Positions 1 through 31,412 of a stretch of DNA of 32,000 bases are shown here, one piece after another. Source of the DNA: Flavobacteriaceae bacterium (GTDB lineage Bacteria; Bacteroidota; Bacteroidia; Flavobacteriales; Flavobacteriaceae). The notes beneath the pieces are model-generated. The model saw nothing but the letters and a program-made list of their open reading frames with translations, was not told where the DNA came from and did no database searches. The stretch covers positions 4,680,001-4,712,000 of the forward strand of contig OZ245049.1 in NCBI GenBank assembly GCA_965224465.1. The letters run 5' to 3'. The stretch's first letter is position 1. Every line of letters starts with the position of its first letter. The translations under genes and the position numbers were made by a program.

Positions 1-330
1 AAACAGCAGCAATCAGAGGAGGATTTAAACACAGAGCTCAAGCCTATTTCGAATGCAACTCTCAATGAAAAGGAACCTGCTAAACGAAAAAGAAGACAAG
101 CGACTGAAGAACAACTAAGCAATCCGTTTCATGGAGTCAAACTAGTGCAGGTTTTAGAACGCCTAGTCGCATTTTATGGATGGGAGTATCTTGGAGAGCG
201 TGTCAATATTCGCTGTTTCTTGTACAATCCTACGATGAAATCAAGCCTCGGTTTTTTAAGAAAAACCCCGTGGGCTCGATTGCATGTAGAGGATATTTAT
301 TTGGAGATGCTGGATGAAAAAGAGGCATAA
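1..330 (+). CDS. 3' part of a DUF2132/VF530-like small DNA-binding-domain protein (5' end outside window)
   Basis: Frame 1 is open from base 1 to the TAA at 328-330. The peptide ...GVKLVQVLERLVAFYGWEYLGERVNIRCFLYNPTMKSSLGFLRKTPWARLHVEDIYL matches, from memory, the DUF2132 signature (YGWE.L...I.CF..P..SSL.FLRKTPWAR..VE..YL). Confidence 0.6.
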   Translation, partial: KQQQSEEDLNTELKPISNATLNEKEPAKRKRRQATEEQLSNPFHGVKLVQVLERLVAFYGWEYLGERVNIRCFLYNPTMKSSLGFLRKTPWARLHVEDIYLEMLDEKEA

Positions 331-480
331 CACCAAACGGATGCTGTTTTTTAGAGATTAGATACAAGTATTAGTACATTTTATTTAAAAGAAATTAAAT
401 GAAGAAAATAATAATAAATTCGAAATTTACAGGCCATCAGAAATTACTTAATAACACTTTTACCAAGATTTAGTTTGTTT

Positions 481-570
481 GGGCGTTCCCCAAGAGGGTC
501 GGGCTATCCGCTATATCTTTTTTTTAAAAGAAAAAAAAGGATGCCGCTGCTATCCCTAACGCAAGGGGAG
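481..570. repeat. ~90-bp imperfect palindromic intergenic element
   Basis: Outer arms GCGTT / AACGC. Inner arms ATCTTTTTTTT / AAAAAAAAGGAT sit around a central AAAAG. GCTATCC is present in both halves. The GCGTTCCCCAAGAGGG box resembles GCGTTCCCAGAAGGG in the last unit of the 10055-11146 array. Confidence 0.3.
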
Positions 571-1077
571 TAGTGAATGTAGATGGTCGGATGGATGAGG
601 TGCTTGTTTCTCTTTTTTTTTGGTAAAAAAATAAGGGTGATTGTGTTTTCGGTTTTTAAGATTGTTTTTATCATTGGCTGTTTGCTTATTTATTTAAAAA
701 ATATACAGTTGCTTATTCGGTACTGTTTCCTGTCTTAAACAGTTCTAAGTAGGGGAGGGATTGGAAAAATAAATGAGATGCTGTTTTTATAACGTATTGC
801 GTATTAACGGTCGTGTTTGCTGTGTTTTTAATTTACACCCCTTTTTCTTGTTGTTAATTGTCTGTAAATAAAGGTTGTTGGGATTTGCGTATAACCTTTA
901 TTTATGTATCTTTGAAGTGCGAGGTGCTTTATATGACCTTGTTTATTAATAGTTTTAATAATGCTCCCTGTGCTGTGGATATGATGGAAATAACCTCAAG
1001 TTTAAGGTTTCTGTTGTGGATATATGGGTGTTATGTATGGTCAAGGCTAAACAGCACATTAATATAAAGAATCAACT

Positions 1078-2961
1078 ATGTATAAGGAAAGTCTATTTGA
1101 ATTAATAAGAAAAGAAGAAGTTGTGATTTGGGCTGGTGCTGGATTATCACTTTACGCTGGTTTTCCCTCAGGTAAAAAGCTTGGCGAAATCCTTCTTGAT
1201 AACTTATCTATATCTGAAAAAGAGAATATAAATGTTAATCTTCCTCTACCTAATTTAGCCGAAGAATTCTATAGGATTAAAAACCATAATAGAAACTCAT
1301 TAATCAGGATATTAAATCAAACATTCATAGACAAAAAACCAATATCTACAGAATGTCATCAGAATATTGCACTCATTCCTCATTTTAAAACCATTATAAC
1401 TACTAATTATGATACGTTATTTGAAAATGCTTACCAGCAAAATGGACAATTAGTATACTCTGTAAAGCATATACCATATCTTGAAAATGGTAAAACTCAA
1501 ATATTCAAAGCTCATGGTGATTTGCAAGAACCTGATAGTATAATAATAACATACTCTGACTACAACAAATTCTTCAAAATTAATAGTGAGAATGGTGTTT
1601 ATTGGACTGTTATAAAAGAAAGACTTTCTACTAACAATGTTCTGTTTTTGGGATACAATATTGAAGATCCTAATGTTTCTATAATATTTGATAAAATTAC
1701 TGATGAGTTAGGTTCAAACAGAAAAGAATGTTTTCTTGTAGCTCCCGATTTACCTCCACAAAAAGTTAATGACCTAATTAGAAAAGGTATTAACTATATC
1801 AATTCTACTGCTGAAGTCCTAATTTCTGAATTGCTTCAAAATTTAAAAGAAAATACAATTGCGGATATTGAAAAAGGTAAAACAACAGCAGACACCTTTC
1901 GTCATTTTCTGTCAAATATTGATTTACTACCCGAATTAAAAGCAGAAAAGGAGGGCTTTAAGGTAAAGTCAATTAAAGGAAATAATGATAAAGTTGAGGG
2001 GAAAATGAACCTAACTTTTAAAAATGATCCAGTTTTTATAAAGGAACTTAATGATTATGTAACAGGAAAAAAAATAGGAACTTTTGAAATCTTTGGGGAT
2101 AAGTTAATAAACGCTGATTTTTGGTATGGTGGATTGAAATTTCCAGCCTCAGAAGGTATTGCTAAACTCGAATTTAAGAGTTGTCCAAAAGTTAATACAT
2201 CTATAGATATTCGCTTTGAGGACGGATTTGAGATTACTGATCTACCTATAAAGTTATATGGTTCTCCATCAATAATTGAAATACACGCTGAATTTAAAAA
2301 TGCTGATCTTATTGTCAATCTTAACTTGGAGACCTTACCTGAAACAAAGGTGAATTTTAACTATACGCATAAAGAAATTTGCAATAATGTAAGAGATGAA
2401 ATCGAACTATTTACCTTCTTAAAAAAATTAGGTGAAGGTGAAATATTTACTGTCTTCGCAAAATCGGGAGAAGTTTTCGAAAAATCTTTTCCAATTATGA
2501 AACCATTACAAGATGAAGGATATTTCTTTCTCAATTATTTTAACAACCTCAAAAAGATAGAACAATATTATAAGTTGCGTTTTTCCAATATAAGTATTCA
2601 TTCTGTGACAGATTCGGTAATTAAGAAAGTTGAATTATTAATTACAGTTATTAATGGTGAAAAAGTTGAATATGATTGGAATGATGAATTGACGCTGAAT
2701 TTATTTGATGGTTATGATGAAAATATTGAACAATTAAGGCAAGTTAATGAGATAAATGCTCCTGTAGTTGCGCATCATAAAGTTGAAGAGATAATAGATC
2801 TACATGGGCATGAAATAAATATAGGATATAAAAAGGTTGAATTTTTAGAGTCTTATGTGTCTAACTTGCAGGAAATAATTGATATGAAAGAAGATGTAGT
2901 TAAAATGAAAAGCAAGTGTGATAAAATTTTAATTTCTTACACTAAAGAAGATGATGAATGA
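1078..2961 (+). CDS. SIR2_2-family (defence-type sirtuin-like, putative NADase) protein with an unassigned ~350-aa C-terminal domain
   Basis: 627-aa ORF with an ATG start. N-terminal motifs VVIWAGAGLSLYAGFPSG, IITTNYDTLFE, FKAHGDL...IITYSDY and VLFLGYNIEDPNV are typical of the SIR2_2 (PF13289-like) fold. I recognise no motif in the C-terminal half. Confidence 0.8.
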   Translation: MYKESLFELIRKEEVVIWAGAGLSLYAGFPSGKKLGEILLDNLSISEKENINVNLPLPNLAEEFYRIKNHNRNSLIRILNQTFIDKKPISTECHQNIALIPHFKTIITTNYDTLFENAYQQNGQLVYSVKHIPYLENGKTQIFKAHGDLQEPDSIIITYSDYNKFFKINSENGVYWTVIKERLSTNNVLFLGYNIEDPNVSIIFDKITDELGSNRKECFLVAPDLPPQKVNDLIRKGINYINSTAEVLISELLQNLKENTIADIEKGKTTADTFRHFLSNIDLLPELKAEKEGFKVKSIKGNNDKVEGKMNLTFKNDPVFIKELNDYVTGKKIGTFEIFGDKLINADFWYGGLKFPASEGIAKLEFKSCPKVNTSIDIRFEDGFEITDLPIKLYGSPSIIEIHAEFKNADLIVNLNLETLPETKVNFNYTHKEICNNVRDEIELFTFLKKLGEGEIFTVFAKSGEVFEKSFPIMKPLQDEGYFFLNYFNNLKKIEQYYKLRFSNISIHSVTDSVIKKVELLITVINGEKVEYDWNDELTLNLFDGYDENIEQLRQVNEINAPVVAHHKVEEIIDLHGHEINIGYKKVEFLESYVSNLQEIIDMKEDVVKMKSKCDKILISYTKEDDE

Positions 2962-3171
2962 ATAACGCCCAGCCCATAACAAAAGTTAAATTTCATGGGC
3001 GCTGATGTGTCGTTTGAAAGTTTAGTGCAATTAATAAATACCAGCAAGCCAATTAAATGGGTTTGCTTAAAATTATAAATTTAATCGACTTGCTTATTTG
3101 GCGCATTGATAAGATTACTCTTTGAAATCGCCCACGACCTTTGCAAGACCGTTACCTGCAAGCTGAAAAAA

Positions 3172-3891
3172 ATGAAGATAAATACTGAAAACATAAAACA
3201 AATGATTTTTCTTCCTCAGGACTTTTTTAAATCTGAAAATTTACTTGAACGGCTAGATAACCAATTTCTTAATCTAAGGATAAATTTAAAAAATAAAAAT
3301 CGTTCAGAAGCAAAGAATGAACTTAATGCCTTTTATCAAATATGTTTGATTAGCGTTAAAATAGAAGAAATTCTTTTAAATGTTCATTTATTTATGTTTG
3401 ACTCACTTATAGAATATTCTAAGCAATTTGAAAGTATTGAAACTTTAAATAATATAATAAAGGCAATAGAAAGTCCTGAATTAAAAGGTAAATTATTTTC
3501 TAAATTACCAATTAAATCTAAAATTCTATATGCACAAGTTCTATTCTACCGTTATGAATTAGAAAACCGAAAGTGTGATGGTAAATTTTCTAAAGAAACA
3601 ACTGATTTTTTATTGAAGTCAAAATTTTATCTTCTTAAAGTTTACACTCAGCATATAGAATTAAAAATTACTCTTTCAGAAAATCAATTATCAACCTGTT
3701 TGTCATATTTATCTATTTGCTTATCTCGGCTATCTAGATGGTTTGAGCCTATTTATTATCTGGAATTAATTAATCAAGAAAACAATCCGAACATAGATTA
3801 TCTATACGCTATAAATTTAGATGCTATAAAAAAGAAAACTTGTTTGAATTATAACTTAAATTCAACTAATAAACGCAACTTTTCGATTTGA
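3172..3891 (+). CDS. hypothetical, predicted mostly helical protein; native 3' end replaced by IS30 sequence
   Basis: ORF in the track runs 3106-3891 (TTG start). The first ATG is at 3172 (MKINTENIK...). The last ~10 codons (NSTNKRNFSI*) lie inside the left inverted repeat of the IS. No recognisable domain. Confidence 0.5.
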   Translation: MKINTENIKQMIFLPQDFFKSENLLERLDNQFLNLRINLKNKNRSEAKNELNAFYQICLISVKIEEILLNVHLFMFDSLIEYSKQFESIETLNNIIKAIESPELKGKLFSKLPIKSKILYAQVLFYRYELENRKCDGKFSKETTDFLLKSKFYLLKVYTQHIELKITLSENQLSTCLSYLSICLSRLSRWFEPIYYLELINQENNPNIDYLYAINLDAIKKKTCLNYNLNSTNKRNFSI

Positions 3892-4975
3892 TTCTATGAT
3901 GGTTATATTTTCAAAACAGAAAAGTAGGAAAACCTACCTTTCTTGTCTTGATGGATATGTATCTTACGGTCTCAAATCTCGAAAAAAGAAGTTGTATGAA
4001 ACACATCACCCAAGCGCAAAGATACACAATTTGTTGCATGTTAAAACAAGGTTATAAACAGGTTGAGATAGCAGCTGCTATAGGAAAAGACAAGTCTGTT
4101 ATTAGCAAAGAGATTAAGCGTAATTCAGACAAAAGAAATGGAGTTTACAAGCATGAATTAGCCCAAAAAAAGTATGCTAAACGTCATAAAGAAAAGCCTA
4201 AAAGAAAACGCTTTACAGAAGATATTCAACAAGCAATAGAGTTGTTATTGCGAGACGATTATAGTCCTGAGCAAGTAGTTGGTGTCCTAAAAAAACAAGG
4301 TAAAGAAACGGTGTCTATTGAGCGTATATATCAGCATATTAGGGAAGACAAGAGGAATGATGGTGATTTACATACACACCTTCGCAGACAGGGAAGGAGA
4401 TATAGAAAACGTGGCTCATCAAAGGATTCTAGAGGGGTTATAAAGAATCGTATTAGTATAGAACAACGCCCTGAAGTTGTTGAACAAAGAAATCGATTTG
4501 GAGATTTAGAGGTCGATTTAATCATAGGTAAAAACCATAATCAAGCCATACTTACCGTAAATGATAGAGCTTCTGGAATGCTTAAAATGAAAAAAGTAAG
4601 CTCTAAAGAAGCAGTTGTTGTCACTAAAGCTATCAATGAAATATTAGAAGACTGGAAGCCTTATCTACATACTATAACAGCTGATAATGGAAAAGAATTT
4701 GCAGGCCATGAGCAGGTTGCAGAAAATTTATGTATTGATTACTTTTTTGCGCATCCATATCACTCTTGGGAAAGAGGATCTAACGAAAATTTAAATGGTT
4801 TGATTAGACAATATTTTGCCAAAGGAAGTGACTTTACAAACCTAACAGATCAAAGAATCAAAGAGGTAGAAACAAAATTAAATAACAGACCTAGGAAGAG
4901 ACATAAATATCAAAACCCTATATTTGTAATGGAACAATTATTATTTAACTAAAAGTTGCGTTTGTGACTTGAATT
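3859..4975 (+). mobile_element. IS30-family insertion sequence (~1.1 kb)
   Basis: Imperfect terminal inverted repeats: caactaataaacgcaactttt (3863-3883) versus the reverse complement of 4951-4971, caagtcacaaacgcaactttt (18/21). Both are flanked by AATT (3859-3862 and 4972-4975), which is either a target duplication or part of the IR. The element encloses a single IS30-type transposase ORF. Confidence 0.8.
3996..4952 (+). CDS. IS30-family DDE transposase
   Basis: N-terminal HTH (ITQAQRYTICCMLKQGYKQVEIAAAIGKDKSVISKEIKRN) and a DDE core (DLEVDLI..., TITADNGKEF, NENLNGLIRQYF) are typical of IS30 transposases. Alternative upstream starts at 3948 (TTG), 3951 and 3957 (ATG). Confidence 0.9.
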   Translation: MKHITQAQRYTICCMLKQGYKQVEIAAAIGKDKSVISKEIKRNSDKRNGVYKHELAQKKYAKRHKEKPKRKRFTEDIQQAIELLLRDDYSPEQVVGVLKKQGKETVSIERIYQHIREDKRNDGDLHTHLRRQGRRYRKRGSSKDSRGVIKNRISIEQRPEVVEQRNRFGDLEVDLIIGKNHNQAILTVNDRASGMLKMKKVSSKEAVVVTKAINEILEDWKPYLHTITADNGKEFAGHEQVAENLCIDYFFAHPYHSWERGSNENLNGLIRQYFAKGSDFTNLTDQRIKEVETKLNNRPRKRHKYQNPIFVMEQLLFN

Positions 4976-4989
4976 CAGCCAATATATAC

Positions 4990-5829
4990 ATGACAAAACC
5001 ACAAACCATACAAATATTCTTGCCCGATGGTTCTCCAACGAGTATACGTGAAGCTGAAATAACCACTAGATTGGTGAAAGCTATTTTATTTCCTAGAAAT
5101 AAGATGGAAGAAGTATCAAAACGTAAAATGGTGCACTATACAGGTGTCTACTTTTTGTTTGGTTATACAGAAGACGGAGCAAAGCCAATGGTATACATCG
5201 GAGAAGGAGAAGATTGCTTTACACGTATACAATCACATAATAGGAAAAAAGATTTTTGGACGCACTGTGTTATTATTGCTGCTAAAACAGATGAGTATAC
5301 CAAAACCGATGGTAAATACTTAGAGCATTATTGTCTGTCAAAAGCAAAAGAAATTGGGCGTTATTCTATTGATAACGATACGGGTTCTAAAAAGCCATCA
5401 ATATCTGAAAGTAGAGAGTATGATTTATTGGACAGTTTTGATACTGCTAAAATATTATTAGCAACATTGGGATTTCCTATTTTTGAAGAAAAGCGTAAAG
5501 TAAAAAGCAAAAAAGAACTTTTTTATTGTCAGAGTAAAAACGTTTCAGCTATTGGTGAATTAACAGATGATGGTTTTTTAGTGTACAAAGATGGAGAATC
5601 AACTGTAGAAGAAACCAAAGGAATGAATAAATGGATTGGGATTCTAAGAAAACGTTTAATAGATGAAGGGATCCTTAAGAAAGTGAACGAGGTGTATATA
5701 TTTCAACAAGATTACATTTTTAATTCGCCTAGTGCTGCTGCCGCTACAATTTTAGGGCGTTCTGCAAATGGTTGGATGTCTTGGAGAGATGAAAACGGGT
5801 TAACGTTAGATGAATTAAAGAGGAAATAG
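4990..5829 (+). CDS. GIY-YIG nuclease-family protein with C-terminal DUF4357-like domain
   Basis: GIY-YIG core GVYFLFG...MVYIGEGEDCFTRIQSH...FW. C-terminal FNSPSAAAATILGRSANGWMSWRDENGLTLDEL matches the DUF4357 signature from memory. ATG at 4990 (MTKPQTIQIFLPDG). The track ORF begins at 4969, inside or adjacent to the IS right end. Confidence 0.75.
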   Translation: MTKPQTIQIFLPDGSPTSIREAEITTRLVKAILFPRNKMEEVSKRKMVHYTGVYFLFGYTEDGAKPMVYIGEGEDCFTRIQSHNRKKDFWTHCVIIAAKTDEYTKTDGKYLEHYCLSKAKEIGRYSIDNDTGSKKPSISESREYDLLDSFDTAKILLATLGFPIFEEKRKVKSKKELFYCQSKNVSAIGELTDDGFLVYKDGESTVEETKGMNKWIGILRKRLIDEGILKKVNEVYIFQQDYIFNSPSAAAATILGRSANGWMSWRDENGLTLDELKRK

Positions 5830-5939
5830 CTTATATTTTAAATGAATCAATCTAAGTTTAGGATAGTATCTAATAATAAATTAAGTTTGCTTTGTCTAAA
5901 TCAAAAATTTCGCCATGTGCCAATCTATAATTTTTGACA

Positions 5940-8390
5940 ATGACAACAGTACAAATAAAAAATAATGCTCAAGAAGCGTTTAACAACAAGGATTACCCAA
6001 AAGCTTTTAATACTTTATGGAAGCTTGGTGTAGTTGGTTTTTTAGAGTTTTCTCAAAGTGAAGACCGTAGGACTAAAAAACAGAACTGGTTAGCTATTAA
6101 CTGGAAAAAGCAGAATACTAAGGGCTATCGCTATTTTTGGGATACCTTTATCTTGCAAGAAAATGTGTTTTCAGCTTGTTTTTCTTCCCAAAGACCGGTG
6201 GAGTTACTGCACAATTATTTTTCAAAAACAATTATTTTTAATGAGGCGTTTGAAACAAAATTAGCCAAAGAATACCCGCGTATTTTTGTGGAAGCTATTC
6301 GGAAAAATGAAGTTTTTTTCAGAGAGGATCGTATTGATTTTTTGCTAAAGGAAGGTTTGTTAGTGGATGAGTTTGTAATTCATCAAGATGTTTGGGAGTC
6401 TTTTCAAAGCGTAGAATTAGAACTCTGGAATCAAATTGAGTCCACAATAGTTATAATTGAAAAATACCCTTTAGAGCATATTTTGTTTTATACCGTAGGC
6501 TATTTTGAAACTAAAAATTACGAAGCTGCTTTTGATCTCCCAAATCAGACTTATTTAGCGGAGGGCTATAGTTTTTTTATAGACTTAATTTTAAGAAATC
6601 CGAAGGTAAAGCAACAAGGTTTTAGCACAGAACAATTTGAGAAGGGCTTTATTCTAACTATTTTTAAAAATAAAGATTTGGAACTTGAAAACGCCATATC
6701 TAAATGTCTTAATCTGATTATGAATAGACAAGGTCTTAATTCTAGTTTTTTTCAGACCTACTGTTTTAACGCTGATTTTGTTCCAAAATATATTTATGAA
6801 TCTTTATGTTTTTATGAGTCTCCAGAATCTCAATACCAGTGGAATGTTGATGAATTTCGCTATAAAGTAAACGAAGAAGTTTATAAGGAAAAGGGAACTC
6901 TTATCGTTGAAAGGCAATTGGAAAACGGAATGCTAATTCCAGGTATAGATGAAGCACATTATTTAAATAATAAGCGTTTAGCATGCAATTTACAAGCTGT
7001 TATTACAGTTTTGAACGATTTGAAATTATCACATTTTAATTCTAAAAACGTAAAAGTTACACCTGTAGCTGTTATAAAACCATTATATGTATATGCTTTT
7101 AATAGATTGGTGAGATATTACGAAGGGTTAAGAAACATACAACAGAGTCCGCCTAAATCCGTAAATAGTTGGAAAACGGCACTTTTGGAACTGGTACGTA
7201 CTCATAGAAAAGGCTACCAACTTCCTTTTGTCTATACATCAAAACAGGAGTATTTTGATTTGAATATAAAAGCAGACAAGGAATTTGACCTAGCAACGAG
7301 TAATCAAGTGTTAAATCAATTTGGATTAAATAGAGTGGGATTAAAACCATTTGATCGTTTTAATTTAAAGTACGCTGTGATAGATACTCCCTTTATATTA
7401 TTAGGAGATTATATATTTAGTCCTGTATTATTTTTTACCAGTTTTACAAGTCAAAACGTATATGTAAAATCCTTACTTCAAAACGATAACAGACGTACTG
7501 CAAGTGATATTGAAAACGTATTAGAAGATTTATTAGTAGCACATGGGCTTGAGATAAAGCACCCAAGTAACAAAGAAGTAAGTTTAATTAATGGGGATGC
7601 AGACCTAATTGTTTCTGATGATAATAATGTCTTATTAATTCAATTAAAACGAACAAGTTTAAGGTTAGATTATAAAGCGCAATATTATGAGCATATACAT
7701 ACAGATTTAAAAGCTGCGAATCAGTTGAATAATGCGGAACAGTATTTTACAACTGAAAACCCTGTATTTGACTTAAAAAACAGGAAAGTAACAAAATGGA
7801 TTGTTTCTAATTCCTTTGAAAAAGTAAATACAGAGATTAACAACTGCTTAAAAGTGAATTATTTAGATCTTGTCAATGTTTTAAGTAATACTGAAGGAAT
7901 GACCTTTAAAACGCTGCCTGATTTTATTTCTTTTTTTGAGGAGGATACCTACTTTAATTCCATTGCTAAAGAATTAATAGAAGGGAATACTATGTTTAAA
8001 GGATTGTTTTCAATATCAAACACAAAACATCGTAATTTCTCATGGAAACACTTTGATGAAGTAAAAGCAACTAAGTACCGTCATTACTATGATAAGGGGA
8101 TAGAATTGAGCGAAAAAGGATATCATAAAAATGCGATCAAGTCACTTAATGAGTGTTTAAAGTTAGAAAATGAAGATTTTGAAGTGCATGGTGTTATAGC
8201 AAATGTTTATGCAGATTTAAAGAATTATAAAAAGGCGTTTTTTCATTATGAAAAAGCCTTAGAAATTGTTCCTAATGAACCTCTAGTACTTAAAAATTAT
8301 GCATATACATTAGCAGAGTCTGGGGATCAAAAAGGGGTGGACTTAGCGAATCAAATGATTAATAATTACCCCTTTTTAAGTTTAATGTAA
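5940..8390 (+). CDS. large uncharacterised protein (816 aa) with a PD-(D/E)xK-like nuclease motif and C-terminal TPR repeats
   Basis: Long uninterrupted ORF. Motif ...DIENVLEDLL...GDADLIVSDDNNVLLIQLKR (nt ~7594-7653) has the spacing of a restriction-endonuclease-like D...(E/Q)xK core. The last ~100 aa (YDKGIELSEKGYHKNAIKSLNECLKLENEDFEVHGVIANVYADLKNYKKAFFHYEKALEIVPNEP...) are TPR-like. No family name recognised. Confidence 0.6.
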   Translation: MTTVQIKNNAQEAFNNKDYPKAFNTLWKLGVVGFLEFSQSEDRRTKKQNWLAINWKKQNTKGYRYFWDTFILQENVFSACFSSQRPVELLHNYFSKTIIFNEAFETKLAKEYPRIFVEAIRKNEVFFREDRIDFLLKEGLLVDEFVIHQDVWESFQSVELELWNQIESTIVIIEKYPLEHILFYTVGYFETKNYEAAFDLPNQTYLAEGYSFFIDLILRNPKVKQQGFSTEQFEKGFILTIFKNKDLELENAISKCLNLIMNRQGLNSSFFQTYCFNADFVPKYIYESLCFYESPESQYQWNVDEFRYKVNEEVYKEKGTLIVERQLENGMLIPGIDEAHYLNNKRLACNLQAVITVLNDLKLSHFNSKNVKVTPVAVIKPLYVYAFNRLVRYYEGLRNIQQSPPKSVNSWKTALLELVRTHRKGYQLPFVYTSKQEYFDLNIKADKEFDLATSNQVLNQFGLNRVGLKPFDRFNLKYAVIDTPFILLGDYIFSPVLFFTSFTSQNVYVKSLLQNDNRRTASDIENVLEDLLVAHGLEIKHPSNKEVSLINGDADLIVSDDNNVLLIQLKRTSLRLDYKAQYYEHIHTDLKAANQLNNAEQYFTTENPVFDLKNRKVTKWIVSNSFEKVNTEINNCLKVNYLDLVNVLSNTEGMTFKTLPDFISFFEEDTYFNSIAKELIEGNTMFKGLFSISNTKHRNFSWKHFDEVKATKYRHYYDKGIELSEKGYHKNAIKSLNECLKLENEDFEVHGVIANVYADLKNYKKAFFHYEKALEIVPNEPLVLKNYAYTLAESGDQKGVDLANQMINNYPFLSLM

Positions 8391-8464
8391 TAATAGGTTT
8401 GTAATAGTAAGTTTATAAGTATCGATTTAATTATCCGAGAGGATCAATTTTAAATTAATTCGAT

Positions 8465-9325
8465 ATGATAACAACTAAATTTATTCCAAGTGTAAATTTT
8501 CATTTATGGGAACCTTGTAATATGCGTTGTAAATTTTGCTTTGCCACGTTTCAAGATGTGAAGCAAACTATTTTACCCAAAGGGCATTTATCAAAAGAAA
8601 AAGCGATAAACGTAGTTAAAAAATTAGCGGACTATGGTTTTAAAAAGATAACTTTTGCTGGTGGAGAACCTATGCTTTGTCCTTGGTTGCCAATGCTAAT
8701 TAAAACAGCAAAGGAGTTAGGGATGACAACGATGCTTGTTACAAATGGGAGTCAACTAACAGAACGTTTTTTAATAGAAAATAAAACCTATTTAGATTGG
8801 ATTGCTATTAGTATAGATAGCCTTAATGAGGCTACTAATTTAAACATAGGTAGGGCTATTGTGGGGAAACGTGCATTAACGGAGGCGTTTTATAAAGAGC
8901 GTATTAAGGATATAAAAAAGCATGGCTACGGTTTAAAAGTAAACACCGTTGTAAATGCGTACAATCACTTAGATGATTTTAACGATTTCATTAATTTTGC
9001 GAAACCTAAAAGATGGAAAGTATTACAAGTGTTACCAATAGAGGGGCAGAACGATCATAAAATAGATGCTTTTAAAATTAGTGGTAAGCAGTTTAATACT
9101 TTTGTAGCAAAACATGCGGGTTTAAATAGTATGGTGCCAGAATCTAATAATGAAATGCAGGGTAGTTATGTTATGATTGATCCTGCAGGTAGATTTTTTG
9201 ATAACTCTAAAGGTAAACATCACTACAGTCATTCTATAGTGAATAATGCCGTAGAAAAAGTAATTAAACAAGTTGATTACAGTTTTAAAAAATTCATACA
9301 AAGAGTTGGTTTGTATAATTGGTAG
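8465..9325 (+). CDS. prokaryotic viperin (pVip), radical-SAM antiviral nucleotide dehydratase family
   Basis: The 286-aa protein aligns by eye with animal viperin along its whole length. CNMRCKFCF (CxxxCxxC, nt 8516-8539) vs CNYKCGFCF; ITFAGGEPML vs INFSGGEPFL; VTNGSQL; LDWIAISIDS vs LDILAISCDS; RWKVLQVLPIEGQN vs RWKVFQCLLIEGEN; VPESNNEMQGSYVMIDP vs VPESNQKMKDSYLILD. It also ends in a C-terminal W. Confidence 0.9.
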   Translation: MITTKFIPSVNFHLWEPCNMRCKFCFATFQDVKQTILPKGHLSKEKAINVVKKLADYGFKKITFAGGEPMLCPWLPMLIKTAKELGMTTMLVTNGSQLTERFLIENKTYLDWIAISIDSLNEATNLNIGRAIVGKRALTEAFYKERIKDIKKHGYGLKVNTVVNAYNHLDDFNDFINFAKPKRWKVLQVLPIEGQNDHKIDAFKISGKQFNTFVAKHAGLNSMVPESNNEMQGSYVMIDPAGRFFDNSKGKHHYSHSIVNNAVEKVIKQVDYSFKKFIQRVGLYNW

Positions 9326-9494
9326 CTGAATATGCTTTGGGTATTTGATTATATAGAGAATAGGACCTCTTTTTTAATTGTAGATAGAACAATATTATGT
9401 TTTAGATAGAAATAAGGGAGGGGGTATTTAGAAAGGATTGGCTGTGCCATCCTAGAAGATGGGGCTGGGTAAGCATGTGAAAACTAATTGCTAT

Positions 9495-9538
9495 CACGTT
9501 TCTATTTGTGGTCTCGGTTATGGCTCAGTTTACCACTT
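9495..9538 (+). repeat. copy 1 of a ~45-bp imperfect direct repeat flanking the DUF45 remnant
   Basis: CACGTTTCTATTTGTGGTCTCGGTTATGGCTCAGTTTACCACTT. In frame it reads M*KLIAITFLFVVSVMAQ, a signal-peptide-like 5' gene end with a stop at codon 2. Confidence 0.5.
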
Positions 9539-9560
9539 TTATATATTCCGATGGTCTTGA

Positions 9561-9780
9561 CCGATTAAATTAAGGAAATTAGAAAAACGTAGAGGAAACT
9601 GTACACCATCGAATACAATTATCATCAATATAGATGCGATTAAATTACCTTAGAGTCCTTGTCCACGAAATAGTTCATGCTGAAATCAGAAGCCATTCTA
9701 AGTCGTTTTGGCTAGCACTGTTTAAGTGTATTGCTAACGAGAAGGTCTTGGATGAAAAGATGAATGAAATTGCAATTTAA
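9561..9780 (+). pseudogene. remnant of a DUF45/YgjP-like (M48-type HExxH) metal-dependent hydrolase gene
   Basis: Reads IKLRKLEKRRGNCTPSNTIIINIDAIKLP*. After a +1 shift it continues VLVHEIVHAEIRSHSKSFWLALFKCIANEKVLDEKMNEIAI*. This matches the rWGSC...ln..L..lP...vvHELaHl...nHs..FW core of DUF45. The N-terminal two thirds are missing, and there is an internal stop plus a frameshift. Confidence 0.65.
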
Positions 9781-9920
9781 TTCACCCTATAAAACGCTGC
9801 TACAAATAAATAGGTTTTTTTTAGGAAAGCCCTAAGTGATGACGGGATCAATATCTAATTTAATGCTAATATCACGCGCTACTTTTAATGTAGGCTCATT
9901 TTTACCTGTCAGGTGGCTGC

Positions 9921-9965
9921 CACGTTTCTATTTGTGCCACCGATTATGGTCAACTTGTGCCACTT
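9921..9965 (+). repeat. copy 2 of the ~45-bp imperfect direct repeat
   Basis: CACGTTTCTATTTGTGCCACCGATTATGGTCAACTTGTGCCACTT, preceded by the palindrome GTGGCTGCCAC. The first 16 nt are identical to copy 1 and the rest is about 60 percent identical. Confidence 0.5.
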
Positions 9966-10054
9966 AGTTTTGGGTATAAATGCTAAATATTGAGCTGTCT
10001 TTACTATTGCGATTGAAGGGGAGGGCTTGAGCTTGAATAATTTTTTGCAAACAT

Positions 10055-11146
10055 GTAAAAGTAGTTTCACTGCGTGAGTTGTTGGTTTTTTAGTTTTAAA
10101 GTTGAGTTTTTGGAGGGATTTGCTTTGCTTTCCCTGAGTGGGGGTTTAGGTACGTATGTAAAACCAATCTCACTGCTTGAGTTGTTGGTTTTTTAGTTTT
10201 AAAGTTGAGTTTTTGGAGGGATTTGCTTCGCTTTCCCAGAGTGGGGGTTTAGGTATGTATGTAAAACCAATATTAATGCGTGCGCTTTTTGGTTGTTTGT
10301 TTTTTAGGTTTAAAGTTGAGTTTTGGGTAGGGGATTCGCTTTGCTTTCCCAGAGTGGGGGTTTAGGTATATGTAAAACCACTCTCACTGCGTGAGTTGGT
10401 TGTTTTTTAGTTTTAAAGTTGAGTTTTGGGAGGGATTTGCTTTGCTTTCCCTGAGTGGGGGTCTTTTGTAAGCGTATAAAACCAAGCTCACTGCGTGAGT
10501 TGTTGGTTTTTTTAGTTTTAAAGTTGATTTTTTGGAGGGATTCGCTTCGCTTTCCCAGAGTGGGGGTTTAGGTATATGTAAAACCAATCTCACTGCGTGA
10601 GTTGTTGGTTGTTGGTTTTTTAGTTTTAAAGTTGAGTTTTGGGAGGGGATTCGCTTTGCTTTCCCTGAGTGGGGGTTTAGGTATGTATTTAAAACCAATC
10701 TCACTGCTTGAGTTGTTGGTTTTTTAGTTTTAAAGTTGAGTTTTGGGAGGGATTGCTTCGCGTTCCCAGAGTGGGGGTCTAGGTATGTATGTAAAACCAA
10801 TATTACTGCGTGAGTTGTTGGTTTTTTTAGTTTTAAAGTTGAGTTTTGGGAGGGGGGATTCGCTTTGCTTTCCCTGAGTGGGGGTTTAGGTATGTATGTA
10901 AAACCAATCTCACTGCGTGAGTTGTTGGTTGTTGGTTTTTTAGTTTTAAAGTTGATTTTTTGGAGGGATTCGCTTTGCTTTCCCTGAGTGGGGGTTTAGG
11001 TAAATGTAAAACCAATCTCACTGCGTGAGTTGTTGGTTGTTGTTTTTTTAGGTTTAAAGTTGAGTTTTGGGAGGGATTGCTTCGCGTTCCCAGAAGGGAA
11101 TCCTTGGCAAGCATATAAAACCAAGCTCACTGCGTGCGCTTTTTGG
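10055..11146. repeat. tandem array of ~11 units of a 100-112 bp repeat, each containing a terminator-like hairpin and a G-rich box
   Basis: Unit starts (CACTGCGTGAG) at about 10068, 10171, 10271, 10385, 10489, 10591, 10702, 10803, 10911, 11019 and 11127. Consensus: CACTGCGTGAGTTGTTGGTTTTTTAGTTTTAAAGTTGAGTTTTGGGAGGGATTCGCTTTGCTTTCCCTGAGTGGGGGTTTAGGTATGTATGTAAAACCAATCT. The hairpin AAAACCAAtCTCACtgcGTGAGttgTTGGTTTTTT spans each unit junction. Confidence 0.9.
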
Positions 11147-11205
11147 TTTTTTTATATCCCAAAAGTTACGAAAGCTAGCTTTCGACGTTTTGGGATATAA
11201 AAAAA
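11147..11205. repeat. 59-bp near-perfect palindrome between the array and the tRNA terminator
   Basis: TTTTTTTATATCCCAAAAgttaCGAAAGCT|AGCTTTCGacgTTTTGGGATATAAAAAAA. 26 paired positions (18 + 8) with one small internal loop. Confidence 0.85.
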
Positions 11206-11227
11206 CCAACACTCCCGTGTTGGTTTT
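11199..11227 (-). terminator. Rho-independent terminator downstream of tRNA-Ser copy 1
   Basis: Minus strand reads AAAACCAACACgggaGTGTTGGTTTTTTT, a 9-bp stem followed by a T7 run, 8 nt after the tRNA 3' end. Confidence 0.7.
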
Positions 11228-11234
11228 CCTTTTG

Positions 11235-11319
11235 CGGAGAAAGAGGGATTCGAACCCCCGGAGGTGTGACCCTCAACAGTTTTCAAGACTGCCGCATTCG
11301 ACCACTCTGCCATTTCTCC
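11235..11319 (-). tRNA. tRNA-Ser (anticodon UGA), long variable arm, no encoded CCA
   Basis: Reverse complement: GGAGAAATGGCAGAGTGGTCGAATGCGGCAGTCTTGAAAACTGTTGAGGGTCACACCTCCGGGGGTTCGAATCCCTCTTTCTCCG. Acceptor GGAGAAA/TTTCTCC, anticodon loop CT-TGA-AA, T-arm GGGGGTTCGAATCCCTC. Similar to E. coli tRNA-Ser(UGA). Confidence 0.9.
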
Positions 11320-11336
11320 AAAGCGTCTTGCGAGTG

Positions 11337-11344
11337 CAAATATA
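11337..11344 (-). promoter_or_regulatory. candidate Bacteroidota -7 promoter box (TATATTTG) for tRNA-Ser copy 1
   Basis: The minus strand reads TATATTTG (consensus TAnnTTTG) 18 nt upstream of the mature tRNA 5' end. The same octamer precedes tRNA copy 2 and aroC. Confidence 0.4.
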
Positions 11345-11409
11345 AACGCTTTTTTTGATTTTCAAGCATGTTTTTTATACAAAAGTATACTTGTTTGAGA
11401 TGCTGTTAG

Positions 11410-12138
11410 TTAAGATTTGAAATCTCTTAATTTTCCGTTTAAAATCAATGGAATATTCGCAGCTTCTCTATCAATAGCTCCGTTTTCGTCGCAGTCAAAA
11501 GATTTATAATTGATCGTAATCAATTTGATTTCCTTTTTTTCTAAGTAATCTTTTTTACGTTGTTTGTAAATGTCGATTTTTGCAGCTCTTGCGCTGTCTA
11601 AAAATCCTTCTTTTGCAATTTCTTCTTTAAAATAACTTTCGAATTCGATGGCTAATTTTAAGTCTTTGTAAAAAGCATCAATAGGCAATTTAGTTCTAGA
11701 TTTGCTGTTTTTATGCATGTCACCTAATAAGAAATCAAAAGTATGTTTACGTACCGCTGTTTGATTTAATATTTCATCACATAAGTTTAAAATAAAAGTC
11801 TCGTCACTGTTTTTAATAGTATTGAGTGCTTTTTGTTTGTTGGTGATGGTTGGTATTGCATTCGTAGGAGTGTATGTAGCTCCTACTTTTACGATGTACC
11901 AATAGATGGTTTTTTCGTTGCGTTCTGCATGTACACATGGAATTTGATCCAAGGTGTTGTTCTTGTCTAGCGTGCGTAAGAGTTTTCTTAGAGGCAATCC
12001 TTTTTTGTTGTCTTTGTTAAATATCCCACCTTTTATTAAAGCTGGCATTAAGTCTTTGGCTGGAATCCAGTTGGTGTCATGCTCCTCAAAGTACTTTGAA
12101 ATGATTTCGTTTATTTTGCTGATGCTATCGTTGTTCAT
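11410..12138 (-). CDS. hypothetical protein (242 aa from ATG; 253 aa from upstream TTG at 12171)
   Basis: Clean ORF between the two tRNA-Ser copies, same strand as both. No family recognised. The C-terminal segment LPIDAFYKDLKLAIEFESY faintly resembles a D...E.E/K restriction-endonuclease-fold core. Confidence 0.55.
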   Translation of the reverse strand: MNNDSISKINEIISKYFEEHDTNWIPAKDLMPALIKGGIFNKDNKKGLPLRKLLRTLDKNNTLDQIPCVHAERNEKTIYWYIVKVGATYTPTNAIPTITNKQKALNTIKNSDETFILNLCDEILNQTAVRKHTFDFLLGDMHKNSKSRTKLPIDAFYKDLKLAIEFESYFKEEIAKEGFLDSARAAKIDIYKQRKKDYLEKKEIKLITINYKSFDCDENGAIDREAANIPLILNGKLRDFKS

Positions 12139-12276
12139 GATCTTGGTATTTCTAAATGTATTTGTTGTCAAACGTTTATTTCAGGAATGACATGTTTTTA
12201 TTCTTGTTTTAACCTGAATTTGAGACGTGTAAGTTACAAAAATCAAGTCGTTTTATTTATAATTAATATAAAATAT

Positions 12277-12311
12277 AAAAACCTCACAATCAATAGATTA
12301 TGAGGTTTTTT
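12277..12311 (-). terminator. Rho-independent terminator downstream of tRNA-Ser copy 2
   Basis: Minus strand reads AAAAAACCTCAtaatctattgattgTGAGGTTTTTAT, directly after the tRNA 3' end. Confidence 0.55.
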
Positions 12312-12312
12312 G

Positions 12313-12397
12313 CGGAGAATGAGGGATTCGAACCCCCGGAGGTGTGACCCTCAACAGTTTTCAAGACTGCCGCATTCGACCACTCTGCCAATTCTCC
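12313..12397 (-). tRNA. tRNA-Ser (anticodon UGA), second copy
   Basis: Reverse complement: GGAGAATTGGCAGAGTGGTCGAATGCGGCAGTCTTGAAAACTGTTGAGGGTCACACCTCCGGGGGTTCGAATCCCTCATTCTCCG. Identical to copy 1 except for a compensatory swap of the seventh acceptor-stem base pair (A:U to U:A). Confidence 0.9.
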
Positions 12398-12428
12398 CGA
12401 GTGTCTTACAGTTTCCTGTTAGCGGTTG

Positions 12429-12436
12429 CAAATATA
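12429..12436 (-). promoter_or_regulatory. candidate -7 promoter box (TATATTTG) for tRNA-Ser copy 2
   Basis: The minus strand reads TTATATTTGCAAC. The box lies 32 nt upstream of the mature 5' end. Confidence 0.35.
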
Positions 12437-12541
12437 AGTCCTTTTTTGGATATACACGTGTGATTTTAATTTTTTTTAATGATTTTTTGAATTTAGTTTT
12501 TTATACTTTTATCCGTTATTAATATTAGAATCTTAAAGGAA

Positions 12542-13288
12542 ATGGATAGTGTGTTGGAAATTATATTGTTAGTAGGCGTAGGGCTTTTTGTAGGGGTTAT
12601 AAATACCCTTGCTGGAGGAGGGTCGTTAATCTCTTTGCCGCTCTTGATTTTTTTAGGTTTGCCTCCTGTAGTTGCTAATGGAACCAATAGAGTGGCAATT
12701 TTAATTCAAAATATATTTGGAGTTGCAGGATTTAAAAGTAAGGGAATAGATTTCTTTTCTTTTGGAAAATGGGCGGCAGCATCTGCATTAGTAGGAGCCG
12801 TTATTGGTGCTCAACTAGCGGTAGATATTAAAGGAGAATTGTTTAATAAGATTCTTGCTGTTGTGATGGTTTTTGTAGTGGTGTATATGGTGATTCCTAA
12901 AAAGAAACTTAAGGAAGAAATCCCATTGACTAAAAAGCGTAAATGGTGGTCTGTATTTTTATTCTTTTTTATAGGGCTCTACGGAGGATTTATTCAGGCA
13001 GGTGTCGGATTTCTTATCTTACTGATTCTCTCGAATGTCAATCAGTTTACTTTAATAAAGAGCAATGCCATTAAAATGTTTGTGGTATTGGTTTATATGG
13101 TGTTAACCGTGGCTATTTTTGCTTATAATGATAAGGTAAATTGGAAGTACGGAATTGCAATGGCTGTTGGAAGTGCTACAGGGGCGTGGTTGACCAGTAG
13201 GTATGCTGTTAAAAAAGGAGATCAATTGGTAAAGGTGGTCTTAATAATCATGGTGATAGGGATGGCTATAAAATTATGGTTTTTTTAG
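12542..13288 (+). CDS. TauE/SafE (TSUP) family sulfite-exporter-like membrane permease
   Basis: 248-aa polytopic membrane protein. LAGGGSLISLPLLIFLGLPPVVANGTNRV is the typical TSUP N-terminal repeat motif, with a second half-repeat GLYGGFIQAGVGFLIL. Confidence 0.8.
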   Translation: MDSVLEIILLVGVGLFVGVINTLAGGGSLISLPLLIFLGLPPVVANGTNRVAILIQNIFGVAGFKSKGIDFFSFGKWAAASALVGAVIGAQLAVDIKGELFNKILAVVMVFVVVYMVIPKKKLKEEIPLTKKRKWWSVFLFFFIGLYGGFIQAGVGFLILLILSNVNQFTLIKSNAIKMFVVLVYMVLTVAIFAYNDKVNWKYGIAMAVGSATGAWLTSRYAVKKGDQLVKVVLIIMVIGMAIKLWFF

Positions 13289-13425
13289 AGGTAAGTTATT
13301 AGAGTCATAAATAAAGGATTTTGTTTTAAAACAAGTTTTGACTACAGATAAACATTTGTTAAACAGGTTTTATTACATTTTATTTAATTCGATGCTGAAA
13401 ATTGAGTTATAAAAACAACAATCAT

Positions 13426-13433
13426 TATATTTG
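13426..13433 (+). promoter_or_regulatory. candidate -7 promoter box (TATATTTG) for aroC
   Basis: TATATTTG lies 28 nt upstream of the aroC ATG. Confidence 0.3.
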
Positions 13434-13460
13434 TAGGGAATTAAAGCATTTAAACTACAG

Positions 13461-14528
13461 ATGGCAAATACTATAGGAAAGATATTTACACTGACTACTT
13501 TTGGAGAGTCGCACGGTCCGGCATTAGGAGGTGTAATTGATGGCTGTCCAGCCGGAGTTGATATTGATTTTAACCAAATTCAAAAGGAACTTAATAGGCG
13601 TAAACCTGGGCAATCTAAAATTGTAACACAACGTAAAGAACCAGACGAAGTTGAGTTTTTGTCAGGGATTTTTGAAGGTAAAACAACGGGGACTTCTATT
13701 GGATTTATCATTAGAAATGCCAATCAAAAATCCAAAGATTACAACCATATAAAAGATGTGTACAGACCTTCTCATGCAGACTTTACGTATGATAAAAAAT
13801 ATGGACATCGCGATTATCGTGGTGGAGGACGTACTTCTGCTCGCGAAACAGTGAACTGGGTGGTTGCAGGCGCCATTGCAAAGCAAGTGATAAAATCTAT
13901 CGATATCAATGCATATACTTCATCTGTAGGTGATTTATTTTTAGAAAAGCCTTACCAAGAGTTGGATTTTAGTCAAACGGAATCCAATATAGTGCGTTGT
14001 CCTGATGCTGCTATTGCGGAGCAAATGATTTCAAAAATCGATGCGATTCGTAAACAAGGTGATACTATTGGAGGAACCGTTACATGTGTTCTTGAAAATG
14101 TACCTTTAGGACTGGGAGAACCTGTTTTTGATAAATTACATGCTCAATTAGGAAAGGCAATGTTATCAATAAACGCAGTAAAAGGATTCGAATACGGAAG
14201 TGGATTCTGTGGTGCTAAAATGAAAGGGAGTGAACACAACGATATTTTTAACGCTGATGGTTCTACTCAAACTAATTTATCTGGAGGAATTCAAGGTGGG
14301 ATTTCCAACGGAATGGATATCTATTTTAGAGTGGCATTCAAGCCTGTGGCAACCATTATGCAAGAACAAGATACGATTAATTCAAAAGGAGAAACGTTGA
14401 AAATGATGGGAAAAGGACGTCATGATCCATGTGTAGTTCCAAGAGCTGTTCCTATTGTGGAAGCCTTGTCAGCAATGGTCTTGTTGGATTGTATGTTGAT
14501 ACATCATGGTGCGAAAGCATCGTTTTAA
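13461..14528 (+). CDS. aroC: chorismate synthase
   Basis: 355 aa. N-terminus [24 protein letters not shown], then [18 protein letters not shown] and [17 protein letters not shown] are canonical AroC motifs. Confidence 0.95.
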
Positions 14529-14633
14529 ACAAACTTAAGGGTCTGATAAGATAGCCTGTAAAAATGATTGTGTTAACATGTTTTTACACCCTGTTTATTT
14601 GTAATAGCTTTATAGACGGGTGATTAATAACGG

Positions 14634-14701
14634 CTACATTTTCAAGTGAAGCTTTAAAAATGGAATTATTTATATCGGTTGTTTTGGGGTGTACTTGGTA
14701 T
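14634..14701. repeat. degenerate copy of the dispersed palindromic (MITE/REP-like) element
   Basis: CTACATTTTCAAGTGAAGCTTTAAAAATGGAATTATTTATATCGGTTGTTTTGGGGTGTACTTGGTAT aligns with the copies at 14845 and 26000. Confidence 0.55.
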
Positions 14702-14764
14702 TGTACTTTGAATCTTCCACTTTTATAAAAATGTGAATATAAAAAATCAGAAAGACTGTATTTT

Positions 14765-14801
14765 AAAAAAGCCTAAGGTTATTAAATCTTAGGCTTTTTT
14801 T
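14765..14801. terminator. bidirectional Rho-independent terminator between convergent aroC and the aminotransferase gene
   Basis: AAAAAAGCCTAAGgttattaaatCTTAGGCTTTTTTT, with A/T runs on both sides. Confidence 0.75.
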
Positions 14802-14844
14802 GTAGGCGAATGTCAAGATGTCTTGCGTCTTGATTCCTGTTCTT

Positions 14845-14918
14845 ATACCAACTAAATTCCAAGTGACGGTTTAGAAAGGGAATTATTTATAGCGGTCATT
14901 TTGGATTGTAATTGGTAT
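14845..14918. repeat. dispersed palindromic (MITE/REP-like) element, compact copy
   Basis: ATACCAACTAAATTCCAAGTGACGGTTTAGAAAGGGAATTATTTATAGCGGTCATTTTGGATTGTAATTGGTAT. The terminal arms ATACCAA..TCCAA.TGAC are inverted copies of each other. Confidence 0.75.
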
Positions 14919-14974
14919 CATTGGTGTCATTGTTTTTAGAAATGATAAGAAGTCCGGATTCTTATGTTTCTTTT

Positions 14975-16141: not shown

Positions 16142-16183
16142 AATCTTTATGGATGTTGCGTGTTAATTCACAGAAAGTTAGTA

Positions 16184-16231
16184 AAAACAATCTCAAGGTC
16201 AAGTAAAACCTTGAAATTGTTTTGTTTTTTT
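16184..16231 (-). terminator. hairpin terminator downstream of the PepSY-TM/lipoprotein genes
   Basis: AAAAACAATcTCAAGGTcaagtaaaACCTTGAaATTGTTTTGTTTTTTT. Stem of about 13 bp with T/A runs on both strands. Confidence 0.5.
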
Positions 16232-16390
16232 AACGATTTAGCAATTGAAGTTTGATAATTTCCTAAATCTGTTTTATGAATCACTTATGGAGGGTTTAAT
16301 TCCTCTAAATTCTACCTCGAAATAGAAAATAGTTTCCCAGAAGAATGTCTCGTATCTTCGGGGCACGTCTGTTGATTTGTCTAAAAAAGC

Positions 16391-16945: not shown

Positions 16946-16951
16946 AGGTTT

Positions 16952-17476: not shown

Positions 17477-17518
17477 TGTGATAAGGTTTTTTATAAACCT
17501 CTAAGTTAGGAGAGAAAA

Positions 17519-17557
17519 AACACATTAAAAATGATATATGTCATTTTTAATATGTTG
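17519..17557 (-). terminator. AT-rich hairpin downstream of gltD
   Basis: Minus strand reads ATTAAAAATGAcatataTCATTTTTAAT followed by GTGTTTTTT. Confidence 0.4.
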
Positions 17558-17569
17558 TAAATGTATGGT

Positions 17570-31344: not shown

Positions 31345-31412
31345 AAAACACGCGTATAAACATAAAAATAATAATAAGTACACAATTTGATATTGGTAAA
31401 TATCAATTGTAA

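Follow-up and report, generated by a model that had tools for sequence, protein, structure and literature searches.

A tRNA-Ser(UGA) defence hotspot with strain-specific, integrase-less cargo in a Flavobacteriaceae bacterium

Results

Strain-variable cargo at the 3' end of tRNA-Ser(UGA)

We analysed a 32,000-nt stretch of contig OZ245049.1 (hereafter the window; all positions without a locus name refer to it) from a member of the Flavobacteriaceae whose nearest public relatives are the North Pond metagenome-assembled genomes NORP129 and NORP270. The interval studied lies between a VF530/DUF2132 gene, which ends at position 330, and a tRNA-Ser(UGA) gene on the minus strand (11234-11319). It holds a stand-alone SIR2 protein of 627 aa (SIR2-627), an IS30-family insertion sequence (IS), the candidate defence gene PDC-S14, an 818-aa NERD/TPR protein and a prokaryotic viperin (pVip). 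The locus belongs to a known class, that of defence islands at tRNA hotspots. Very probably, positions ~343-9908 represent the strain-specific cargo of a hotspot on the 3' side of the distal of two tRNA-Ser copies, which has lost its integrase and become immobilised.

Every open reading frame (ORF) of at least 85 aa within 331-11233 that has homologues lies on the plus strand, reads toward the tRNA and is of defence or mobile type, as had been stated in an earlier description of the window made from its letters alone (the sequence-only reading). Matches to Pfam, NCBIfam and PADLOC also recovered the identities given there to SIR2_2, IS30, the PD-(D/E)xK-like/TPR protein, pVip and a DUF45 remnant.

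The comparison included four relatives at ~85-88% nucleotide identity (L002, L024, L025 and L026) and a conspecific ENA metagenome contig (L023). In blastn searches against the relatives' loci, the homology of all four begins at 11230-11234, the tRNA-Ser 3' end, where the sequence-only reading had placed its island. Past this end, L002 has an ISL3 transposase, L025 has McrC and McrB, and L026 has a 402-aa tyrosine integrase (Arm-DNA-bind_5, SAM_5, Phage_integrase) adjoining the tRNA. The conspecific L023 is 99.03% identical to the window across 7,643 nt (window 10957-18597) and has in common with it both tRNA-Ser copies, the gene orf253 between them, a palindrome, about two tandem-repeat units and a 68-nt motif, until its similarity is lost abruptly at 9908/9909. 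Beyond this breakpoint, L023 encodes AbiEi (E = 1.6e-58), an FtsX-like/ABC/DUF4836 trio, a type I HsdR (E = 1e-283) and a GIY-YIG protein, all facing the tRNA as in the window. Five distinct contents are therefore found at one tRNA-Ser site (window, L023, L025, L026 and L002), four of them defence or mobile genes, which makes the site a hotspot. The cargo (343-9908) is bounded by the loss of homology at 342 (VF530 loci of relatives) and at 9908/9909 (L023). The strain-variable part stops at 9908, and not at 11234 as had been proposed; the repeat array and spacer beyond it are fixed within the species.

The same comparison bears on the idea that the interval is simply conserved core chromosome with defence-like domains and no island, which we consider scarcely credible. 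Such an origin would agree with a modest compositional deviation (GC of 0.308 and GC at third codon positions, GC3, of 0.21-0.26 in the island coding sequences; 0.358 and 0.23-0.36 in the right flank), and the genes run in the direction of the window's overall positive GC skew, which suggests a leading-strand bias. However, we count it as already refuted by the five contents at the same tRNA-Ser site, including that of a 99%-identical conspecific. Moreover, in clusters at 90% identity the SIR2 and pVip proteins are singletons, and PDC-S14 clusters with just one other sequence. The gene order is thus not that of a conserved core, other genes occupying the tRNA-Ser site in the relatives and in L023, as the sequence-only reading had anticipated. 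Of the compositional contrast that it proposed to look for, the lower GC and GC3 of the island were found, whereas codon-usage likelihood did not discriminate.

Probable loss of the integrase

No recombinase domain was detected in any ORF of the window (Pfam, NCBIfam), and tblastn with the integrases and neighbouring genes of L017, L018 and L020 returned nothing in it, in agreement with the absence noted earlier. A search for a partial tRNA copy or attachment site (blastn-short with the tRNA and its flanks) gave only chance matches of at most 14 nt left of 11143, again as noted; the second complete tRNA-Ser(UGA) lies outside the island, at 12312-12397. The integrase adjoins the tRNA in all three integrase-bearing comparators (L017, L020 and L026), and the corresponding position in the window holds the array and spacer only. 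Because neither an integrase nor a remnant of one is present, and because the island contains two gene remnants and an IS, we regard it as probably old and immobilised, in line with the first of the two options raised by the sequence-only reading.

The second option, that the element can still move and has its integrase to the left of the window, appears highly improbable. It is true that the window starts inside VF530, and that integrase elements use this very tRNA-Ser in L026. However, the sequence up to 342, VF530 included, is conserved in the chromosomes of relatives, in which glycosyltransferases, or a PAS kinase and Imm63, and not recombinases, are encoded upstream of VF530. In addition, the array fills the place taken by the integrase in the comparators, a search for direct repeats of the tRNA 3' end was negative, and the two gene remnants and the IS indicate decay.

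A tyrosine integrase directly adjoins a tRNA-Met at the end of an island of Winogradskyella rapida (L017, 14622-16125) that carries a NERD/TPR-pVip pair, type I restriction-modification (RM) and McrBC. This arrangement is the intact counterpart of the integrase-less one in the window.

A stand-alone SIR2 protein

SIR2-627 (1078-2961, plus strand; Pfam SIR2_2, E = 3e-28) consists of an N-terminal defence-type SIR2 NADase domain and a beta-rich C-terminal domain (~283-627; pLDDT of the structural model, 88.3). Residues 6-240 match ThsA and KomC among PDB sequences, the fold search returned ThsA, KomC and DSR2 over ~270-340 columns only, corresponding to the SIR2 part, and the PADLOC ThsA models align to residues 7-238 only. 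The C-terminal residues 281-627 gave no Pfam match and no PDB or PADLOC assignment. N110, D112 and H146 are invariant across 40 homologues. The likeness to ThsA, DSR1/DSR2 and KomC therefore concerns the SIR2 domain, by both sequence and fold, and the invariant, catalytic-type N, D and H. In contrast, the C-terminal domain differs from the SLOG/STALD C-terminus of ThsA and from the helical domain of the DSR proteins, and SIR2-627 is solo, with no ThsB/TIR, KomA/B or HerA partner. Judged by its sequence, SIR2-627 would thus act as the defence sirtuins do, yet it falls outside all named systems; its most likely mechanism would be NAD+ depletion triggered via the C-terminal domain.

The family comprises at least 335 full-length members in Bacteroidota. 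One homologue is the solo cargo of an integrase/RteC/HTH_17/RT element next to a tRNA (L020), and another stands alone in a chromosomal context (L022). Membership of Thoeris was considered and rejected, as SIR2-627 has no SLOG/STALD domain and no adjacent ThsB; no island ORF has a TIR match (Pfam, PADLOC). The following ORF (3106-3891) was likewise rejected as a partner, the SIR2 homologues being solo and this ORF being a truncated HEPN-family gene.

A HEPN-family remnant, IS30 and PDC-S14

ORF 3106-3891, missing from the gene list of the sequence-only reading, has no family match of its own. Its identity comes from 37 homologues, the full-length ones of which align with their own residues ~1-235 to query residues 23-250 and carry HEPN_LA2681 at ~340-535. 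The window gene (3172-3858, plus strand) retains the N-terminal ~228 aa of this ~520-575-aa family; it ends at residue ~250, and the C-terminal HEPN part is missing. Its stop codon falls within the left inverted repeat of the IS30-family element (3859-4975, plus strand; transposase 3948-4952; NCBIfam transpos_IS30, 290.7 bits versus a cut-off of 80). The terminal inverted repeats of this IS measure 25 nt (3859-3883 and 4951-4975, 88% complementary), and no target-site duplication, expected to be 2-3 bp, was found at any plausible end. Because the stop codon lies inside the inverted repeat and a target duplication is lacking, the HEPN half was probably lost through an IS-associated deletion.

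PDC-S14 (4990-5829, plus strand) is a candidate defence gene that matches PADLOC PDLC04925 at full length (E = 2e-107; residues 4-285 against positions 9-296 of 301), with no difference detected; the family itself is a computational candidate, and no description of its function was found in the literature searched. The sequence-only reading had called this gene GIY-YIG/DUF4357. DUF4357 (also RAMA) was indeed recovered at the C-terminus (Pfam, E = 2.7e-24), whereas GIY-YIG had no Pfam match at E <= 0.01, its N-terminal motif being visible by eye only.

A rare NERD/TPR protein upstream of a viperin

The 818-aa NERD/TPR protein (5934-8390, plus strand) is composed of a helical N-domain (1-~480), a PD-(D/E)xK NERD-like domain (~485-675) and C-terminal TPRs (~709-811; Pfam TPR at 716-811). 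Pfam gave nothing meaningful for the N-domain. Residues 485-674 match the PADLOC model of viperin-associated NERD (PDLC02906, E = 7.5e-20), and the structural model (pLDDT 86.6) contains an alpha/beta PD-(D/E)xK-like core; fold searches returned only TPR proteins and weak restriction-endonuclease-like matches. The protein is very rare: from 5.8 billion clusters, 16 homologues were retrieved, with G554, D555, D557, D562, Q570, K572 and R573 invariant. It resembles the PADLOC family in its NERD-like PD-(D/E)xK domain and in the adjacency of its gene to a viperin. It differs from that family in that only profile positions 378-541 of 542 are matched, leaving the N-terminal 377 unmatched, in that its 480-aa helical N-domain and its C-terminal TPRs fall outside the model, and in that members of its family also occur without viperin. 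No description of a NERD-viperin system was found in the literature searched.

Close homologues adjoin a viperin in three of four contexts. The viperin lies directly 3' of the NERD/TPR gene in W. rapida, as does a viperin-kinase fusion in Flavicella sediminum (L018), where a PDC-S14 homologue of 77% identity lies just upstream. Both of these pairs are situated within type I RM islands, and the NERD/TPR gene is found downstream of type I RM in three genera. A full-length homologue of 28% identity is encoded on a Tenacibaculum finnmarkense plasmid (L027, CP116296.1, 81760-84207), directly downstream of BREX-1 pglX-pglZ-brxL and with no viperin nearby; two Tenacibaculum plasmids, of 130-154 kb, carry such a homologue. 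The NERD/TPR family is therefore associated with defence islands throughout, and its link to viperin is frequent in close members and not obligatory. These contexts, after type I RM or BREX for NERD/TPR and in an integrase/RteC element at a tRNA for SIR2, bear out the defence-island setting that the sequence-only reading had supposed for the homologues. That NERD/TPR is a required sensor or nuclease partner, making pVip a two-component system, is a tentative proposal that we rather doubt.

The viperin itself (8465-9325, plus strand) is a radical-SAM pVip of the prokaryotic kind (NCBIfam viperin_w_prok NF038283, 328.4 bits versus a cut-off of 180; PADLOC E = 3e-94 to 3e-142; PDB viperins E = 1e-40 to 3e-47). 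Prokaryotic viperins were reportedly described by Bernheim and colleagues in 2021. The window protein matches the pVip models of NCBIfam and PADLOC, as well as solved viperins, at full length, and its CxxxCxxC motif is present as CNMRCKFC (C18, C22 and C25). It departs from known members in two respects: its best PADLOC match is the viperin part of a viperin-kinase fusion model, whereas the window gene has no kinase domain, and it is preceded by the rare NERD/TPR protein. The end of pVip coincides exactly with the end of the viperin domain in the Flavicella fusion. A remnant of a kinase domain was looked for downstream of pVip and none was found.

The left junction

At the opposite end of the island, the VF530/DUF2132 gene, of which the window contains the 3' part (1-330, plus strand; Pfam VF530, E = 4.7e-24), forms a conserved left flank. 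It is 81-85% identical at the nucleotide level to the VF530 loci of relatives up to 342, 12 nt past the stop codon, where homology ends; the left limit of the cargo accordingly lies somewhere within 343-1077. The sequence-only reading had proposed looking for relatives in which DUF2132 directly adjoins tRNA-Ser. None was found: VF530 is followed instead by OmdA/DUF8412 and then by other small accessory genes, and no tRNA occurs within 9-10 kb of VF530 in any relative with a VF530 locus. In more distant genera, a TauE-based contig scan found no VF530 within 10 kb; in the same scan, the contigs of L001 and L002 end at or near the tRNA.

The left pad (331-1077) is non-coding and contains two elements. 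A full-length Flavo-1 RNA motif on the minus strand (493-567; Rfam RF01705, 59.8 bits versus a gathering threshold of 42) sits in the gap between VF530 and the second element; an Rfam scan of 128 kb of relatives' loci found no Flavo-1. The second is a dispersed, promoter/leader-like element of ~340 nt (683-1034, plus strand) directly upstream of the SIR2 gene. It includes a Bacteroidetes -7 box, TATCTTTG, at 907-914 (TAnnTTTG, conserved), followed by a leader of 110-170 nt; a sigma-70 promoter scan is uninformative in Bacteroidota. Copies that are 70-76% identical are found in relatives (L010 8923-9198, 13998-14328 and 10399-10439; L012 5113-5439 and 2552-2664), with two to three per VF530 neighbourhood and in VF530 neighbourhoods only, each lying 30-45 nt upstream of an accessory gene. 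The genes behind these copies encode a 228-aa protein, OmdA, a beta-lactamase-family protein, a transglutaminase-core protein and Imm63. In structure, the element has one 7-bp 5' hairpin with two compensatory pairs, weakly supported. It could be a portable promoter/5'-UTR (untranslated region) cassette or a recombination substrate.

These observations raise the possibility that the left end may be a rearrangement or recombination junction between two variable regions and not a simple island end. Under this alternative, the chief rival to the reading that we favour and one that we judge unlikely, two abutting variable regions would have been joined by a rearrangement or deletion, possibly mediated by IS30: Flavo-1, the promoter/leader element and perhaps SIR2 and the HEPN remnant would form a VF530 accessory cluster, and the right part alone would be the tRNA-Ser hotspot. 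It would account for the fact that VF530 never adjoins tRNA-Ser in relatives, and for the restriction of the 683-1034 copies to VF530 neighbourhoods, a 41-nt piece following VF530 directly in L010. An IS30 that truncates a gene and has no target duplication is also what would be expected after an IS-mediated deletion or junction, and in Flavicella PDC-S14, NERD/TPR and pVip move as a block without SIR2. However, no breakpoint inside the island is documented, the conspecific comparison (L023) covering the right side only, and the genes on either side of IS30 are all of defence type and co-directional.

The right pad

The right pad (9326-11233) is non-coding, with a strong skew to G and T (GC skew as high as +0.44, AT skew as low as -0.37). 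Both pads had been described as non-coding, GT-skewed and repeat-rich; this holds for the right one, whereas the left, although non-coding, is mildly skewed and has no internal repeats. From the cargo toward the tRNA, the right pad comprises the DUF45 remnant, the 68-nt motif, a spacer of ~75 nt, a ten-unit array, a 67-nt palindrome and the tRNA terminator.

The remnant (9561-9777, plus strand) corresponds to the C-terminal ~75 aa of a frameshifted DUF45/YgjP-like metallopeptidase (Pfam YgjP-like, E = 3.9e-10 with two frames joined; profile positions 134-205 of 207) and retains the HEIVH motif. It is probably the leftover of a lost restriction-modification operon. The 68-nt motif (9905-9972, plus strand) marks the edge of the species-conserved flank, with one mismatch to L023 and the breakpoint at its left end, and has three TGCCAC/GTGGCA half-sites. 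A degenerate second copy (9483-9545, plus strand) shares with it an exact 16-nt core, CACGTTTCTATTTGTG, at 9495 and 9921, and 79% identity over 34 nt, which makes for a weak case. The two copies lie 426 nt apart and bracket the DUF45 remnant, faintly suggesting an old cassette boundary. The motif shows no significant fold, and no further copy was found in L023, nor any in the other loci.

The tandem array (10053-11152; TRF score 1357-1599) dominates this pad. Each of its ten units, 103-113 nt long, combines a GGGA...TCCC stem with a CTCAC-TGC-GTGAG/AAAACCAA...TTGGTTTT hairpin, after which come T-runs that can be read on either strand. The array region contains 12 terminator-like sites, against 1.8 +/- 1.5 in shuffles. 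Its copy number varies, with ten units in the window versus about two in the conspecific (L023 7444-7636), and AGTTTTGGG, present at the end of the 68-nt motif and at the start of each unit, provides microhomology for expansion and contraction. The array shows no covariation, as would be expected of young duplicates. Rfam returned nothing for it even at E <= 1, relatives' loci totalling 361 kb contain no copy of it, and its core has no exact match in metagenome contigs. Between the array and the tRNA gene lie a long palindromic hairpin and the tRNA terminator hairpin (11143-11233, minus strand), with a 22-nt perfect inverted repeat and a fold energy of -26.5 kcal/mol (z = -7.6).

No plus-strand terminator-like site was found between 300 and 9500, nor from pVip to the array. 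Because the island genes have no such site and the array stands between convergent island and tRNA transcription, the most economical reading suggests that the array would be a transcriptional insulator. A bolder scheme, which we consider very unlikely, would make the hotspot an integrase-independent, integron-like platform, in which tRNA-oriented defence cassettes are exchanged at the 68-nt site, 9483-9545 is an older boundary, and the array is an insulator or a series of tandem small-RNA genes.

The tRNA-Ser pair and the right flank

The distal tRNA-Ser(UGA) (11234-11319, minus strand; ARAGORN, Rfam), whose 3' end faces the island, is accompanied by a complete proximal copy (12312-12397, minus strand; ARAGORN) that adjoins TauE. 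The two copies differ by 2 nt, which amount to one compensatory acceptor-stem pair. Between them lies orf253 (11410-12171, minus strand), with orthologues of 86-99.6% identity at the same position in L001, L002 and L023-L026; the 253-aa product had no match in Pfam, NCBIfam, PADLOC, PHROGs or PDB sequences. The tRNA was duplicated along with ~70 nt of promoter-like upstream sequence. The layout of two tRNAs and orf253 is fixed in the genus (L002, L023-L026), whereas in other genera just one tRNA-Ser adjoins TauE. This duplicated layout may be the scar of an older integration.

Further to the right, an intergenic repeat of ~60 nt (CCAAGTGAMGGTTTAGAAAKGGAATTATTT...) occurs in both orientations, at 14640-14701, 14857-14918, 25997-26045, 26071-26109 and 31300-31358.

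Discussion

The explanation that we favour, an immobilised hotspot cargo, implies the following scenario. The cargo would be a mosaic of anti-phage modules that act independently of one another and are all transcribed in the direction of the tRNA; their biochemical activities are predicted from family membership. In SIR2-627, the beta-rich C-terminal domain would sense infection and release NAD+ hydrolysis, leading to abortive infection. PDC-S14 would be a candidate nuclease-type gene, and the viperin would convert NTPs into 3'-deoxy-3',4'-didehydro chain terminators, with NERD/TPR acting either as an accessory nuclease or sensor or as an independent neighbour. These genes would have arrived on tyrosine-integrase elements targeting the tRNA-Ser 3' end, of the kind still seen in L026; the integrase would later have been lost, and decay would have left IS30 and the two gene remnants. 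At present, strains would exchange cargo through recombination within conserved flanking sequence, the right crossover being possible anywhere right of 9908. A 1.3-kb non-coding spacer, which is fixed in the species and carries the 68-nt motif, the array and the palindrome, lies between cargo and tRNA; most plausibly, the array would keep island transcription from reading through into the tRNA genes in the antisense direction.

Several points weigh against this scenario. In every relative seen, VF530 precedes OmdA/DUF8412 and is never near tRNA-Ser, and an empty site was not found. The 683-1034 element resembles elements native to the VF530 neighbourhood, so that some of the island may come from a second variable region, brought alongside by rearrangement. 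Composition departs modestly from that of the flank, and island and flank genes are not told apart by codon-usage likelihood. The defence roles of SIR2-627, PDC-S14 and NERD/TPR are predicted ones. Finally, no viperin adjoins the NERD/TPR gene in Olleya (L019, 59% identity), in a 33% homologue or in the Tenacibaculum plasmid homologue.

The island resembles other tRNA-associated genomic and defence islands in its position at a tRNA 3' end, in its variable cargo dominated by anti-phage genes, in a GC content below that of the flank, and in the presence of an integrase at the same site in the relative L026. It differs from them in having neither an integrase nor an att-type tRNA fragment, in a strain-level breakpoint 1.3 kb away from the tRNA, past a conserved repeat array, and in a left flank, VF530, that does not neighbour the tRNA in relatives. 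Among its genes, pVip, IS30 and PDC-S14 are members of described families, whereas NERD/TPR shares only its nuclease domain with viperin-associated NERD.

With this locus, a tRNA-Ser defence hotspot is documented for marine Flavobacteriaceae, whose anti-phage systems have been little studied. It also brings forward three targets: a SIR2 protein, widespread in Bacteroidota, whose beta-rich C-terminal domain matched no known family and which is carried solo by integrative elements; a NERD/TPR protein of great rarity, found alongside viperins in three genera; and a terminator-like repeat array of variable copy number between island transcription and the tRNA genes. They leave the general picture of defence islands unchanged, and each of them could yield a new sensor domain or accessory function.

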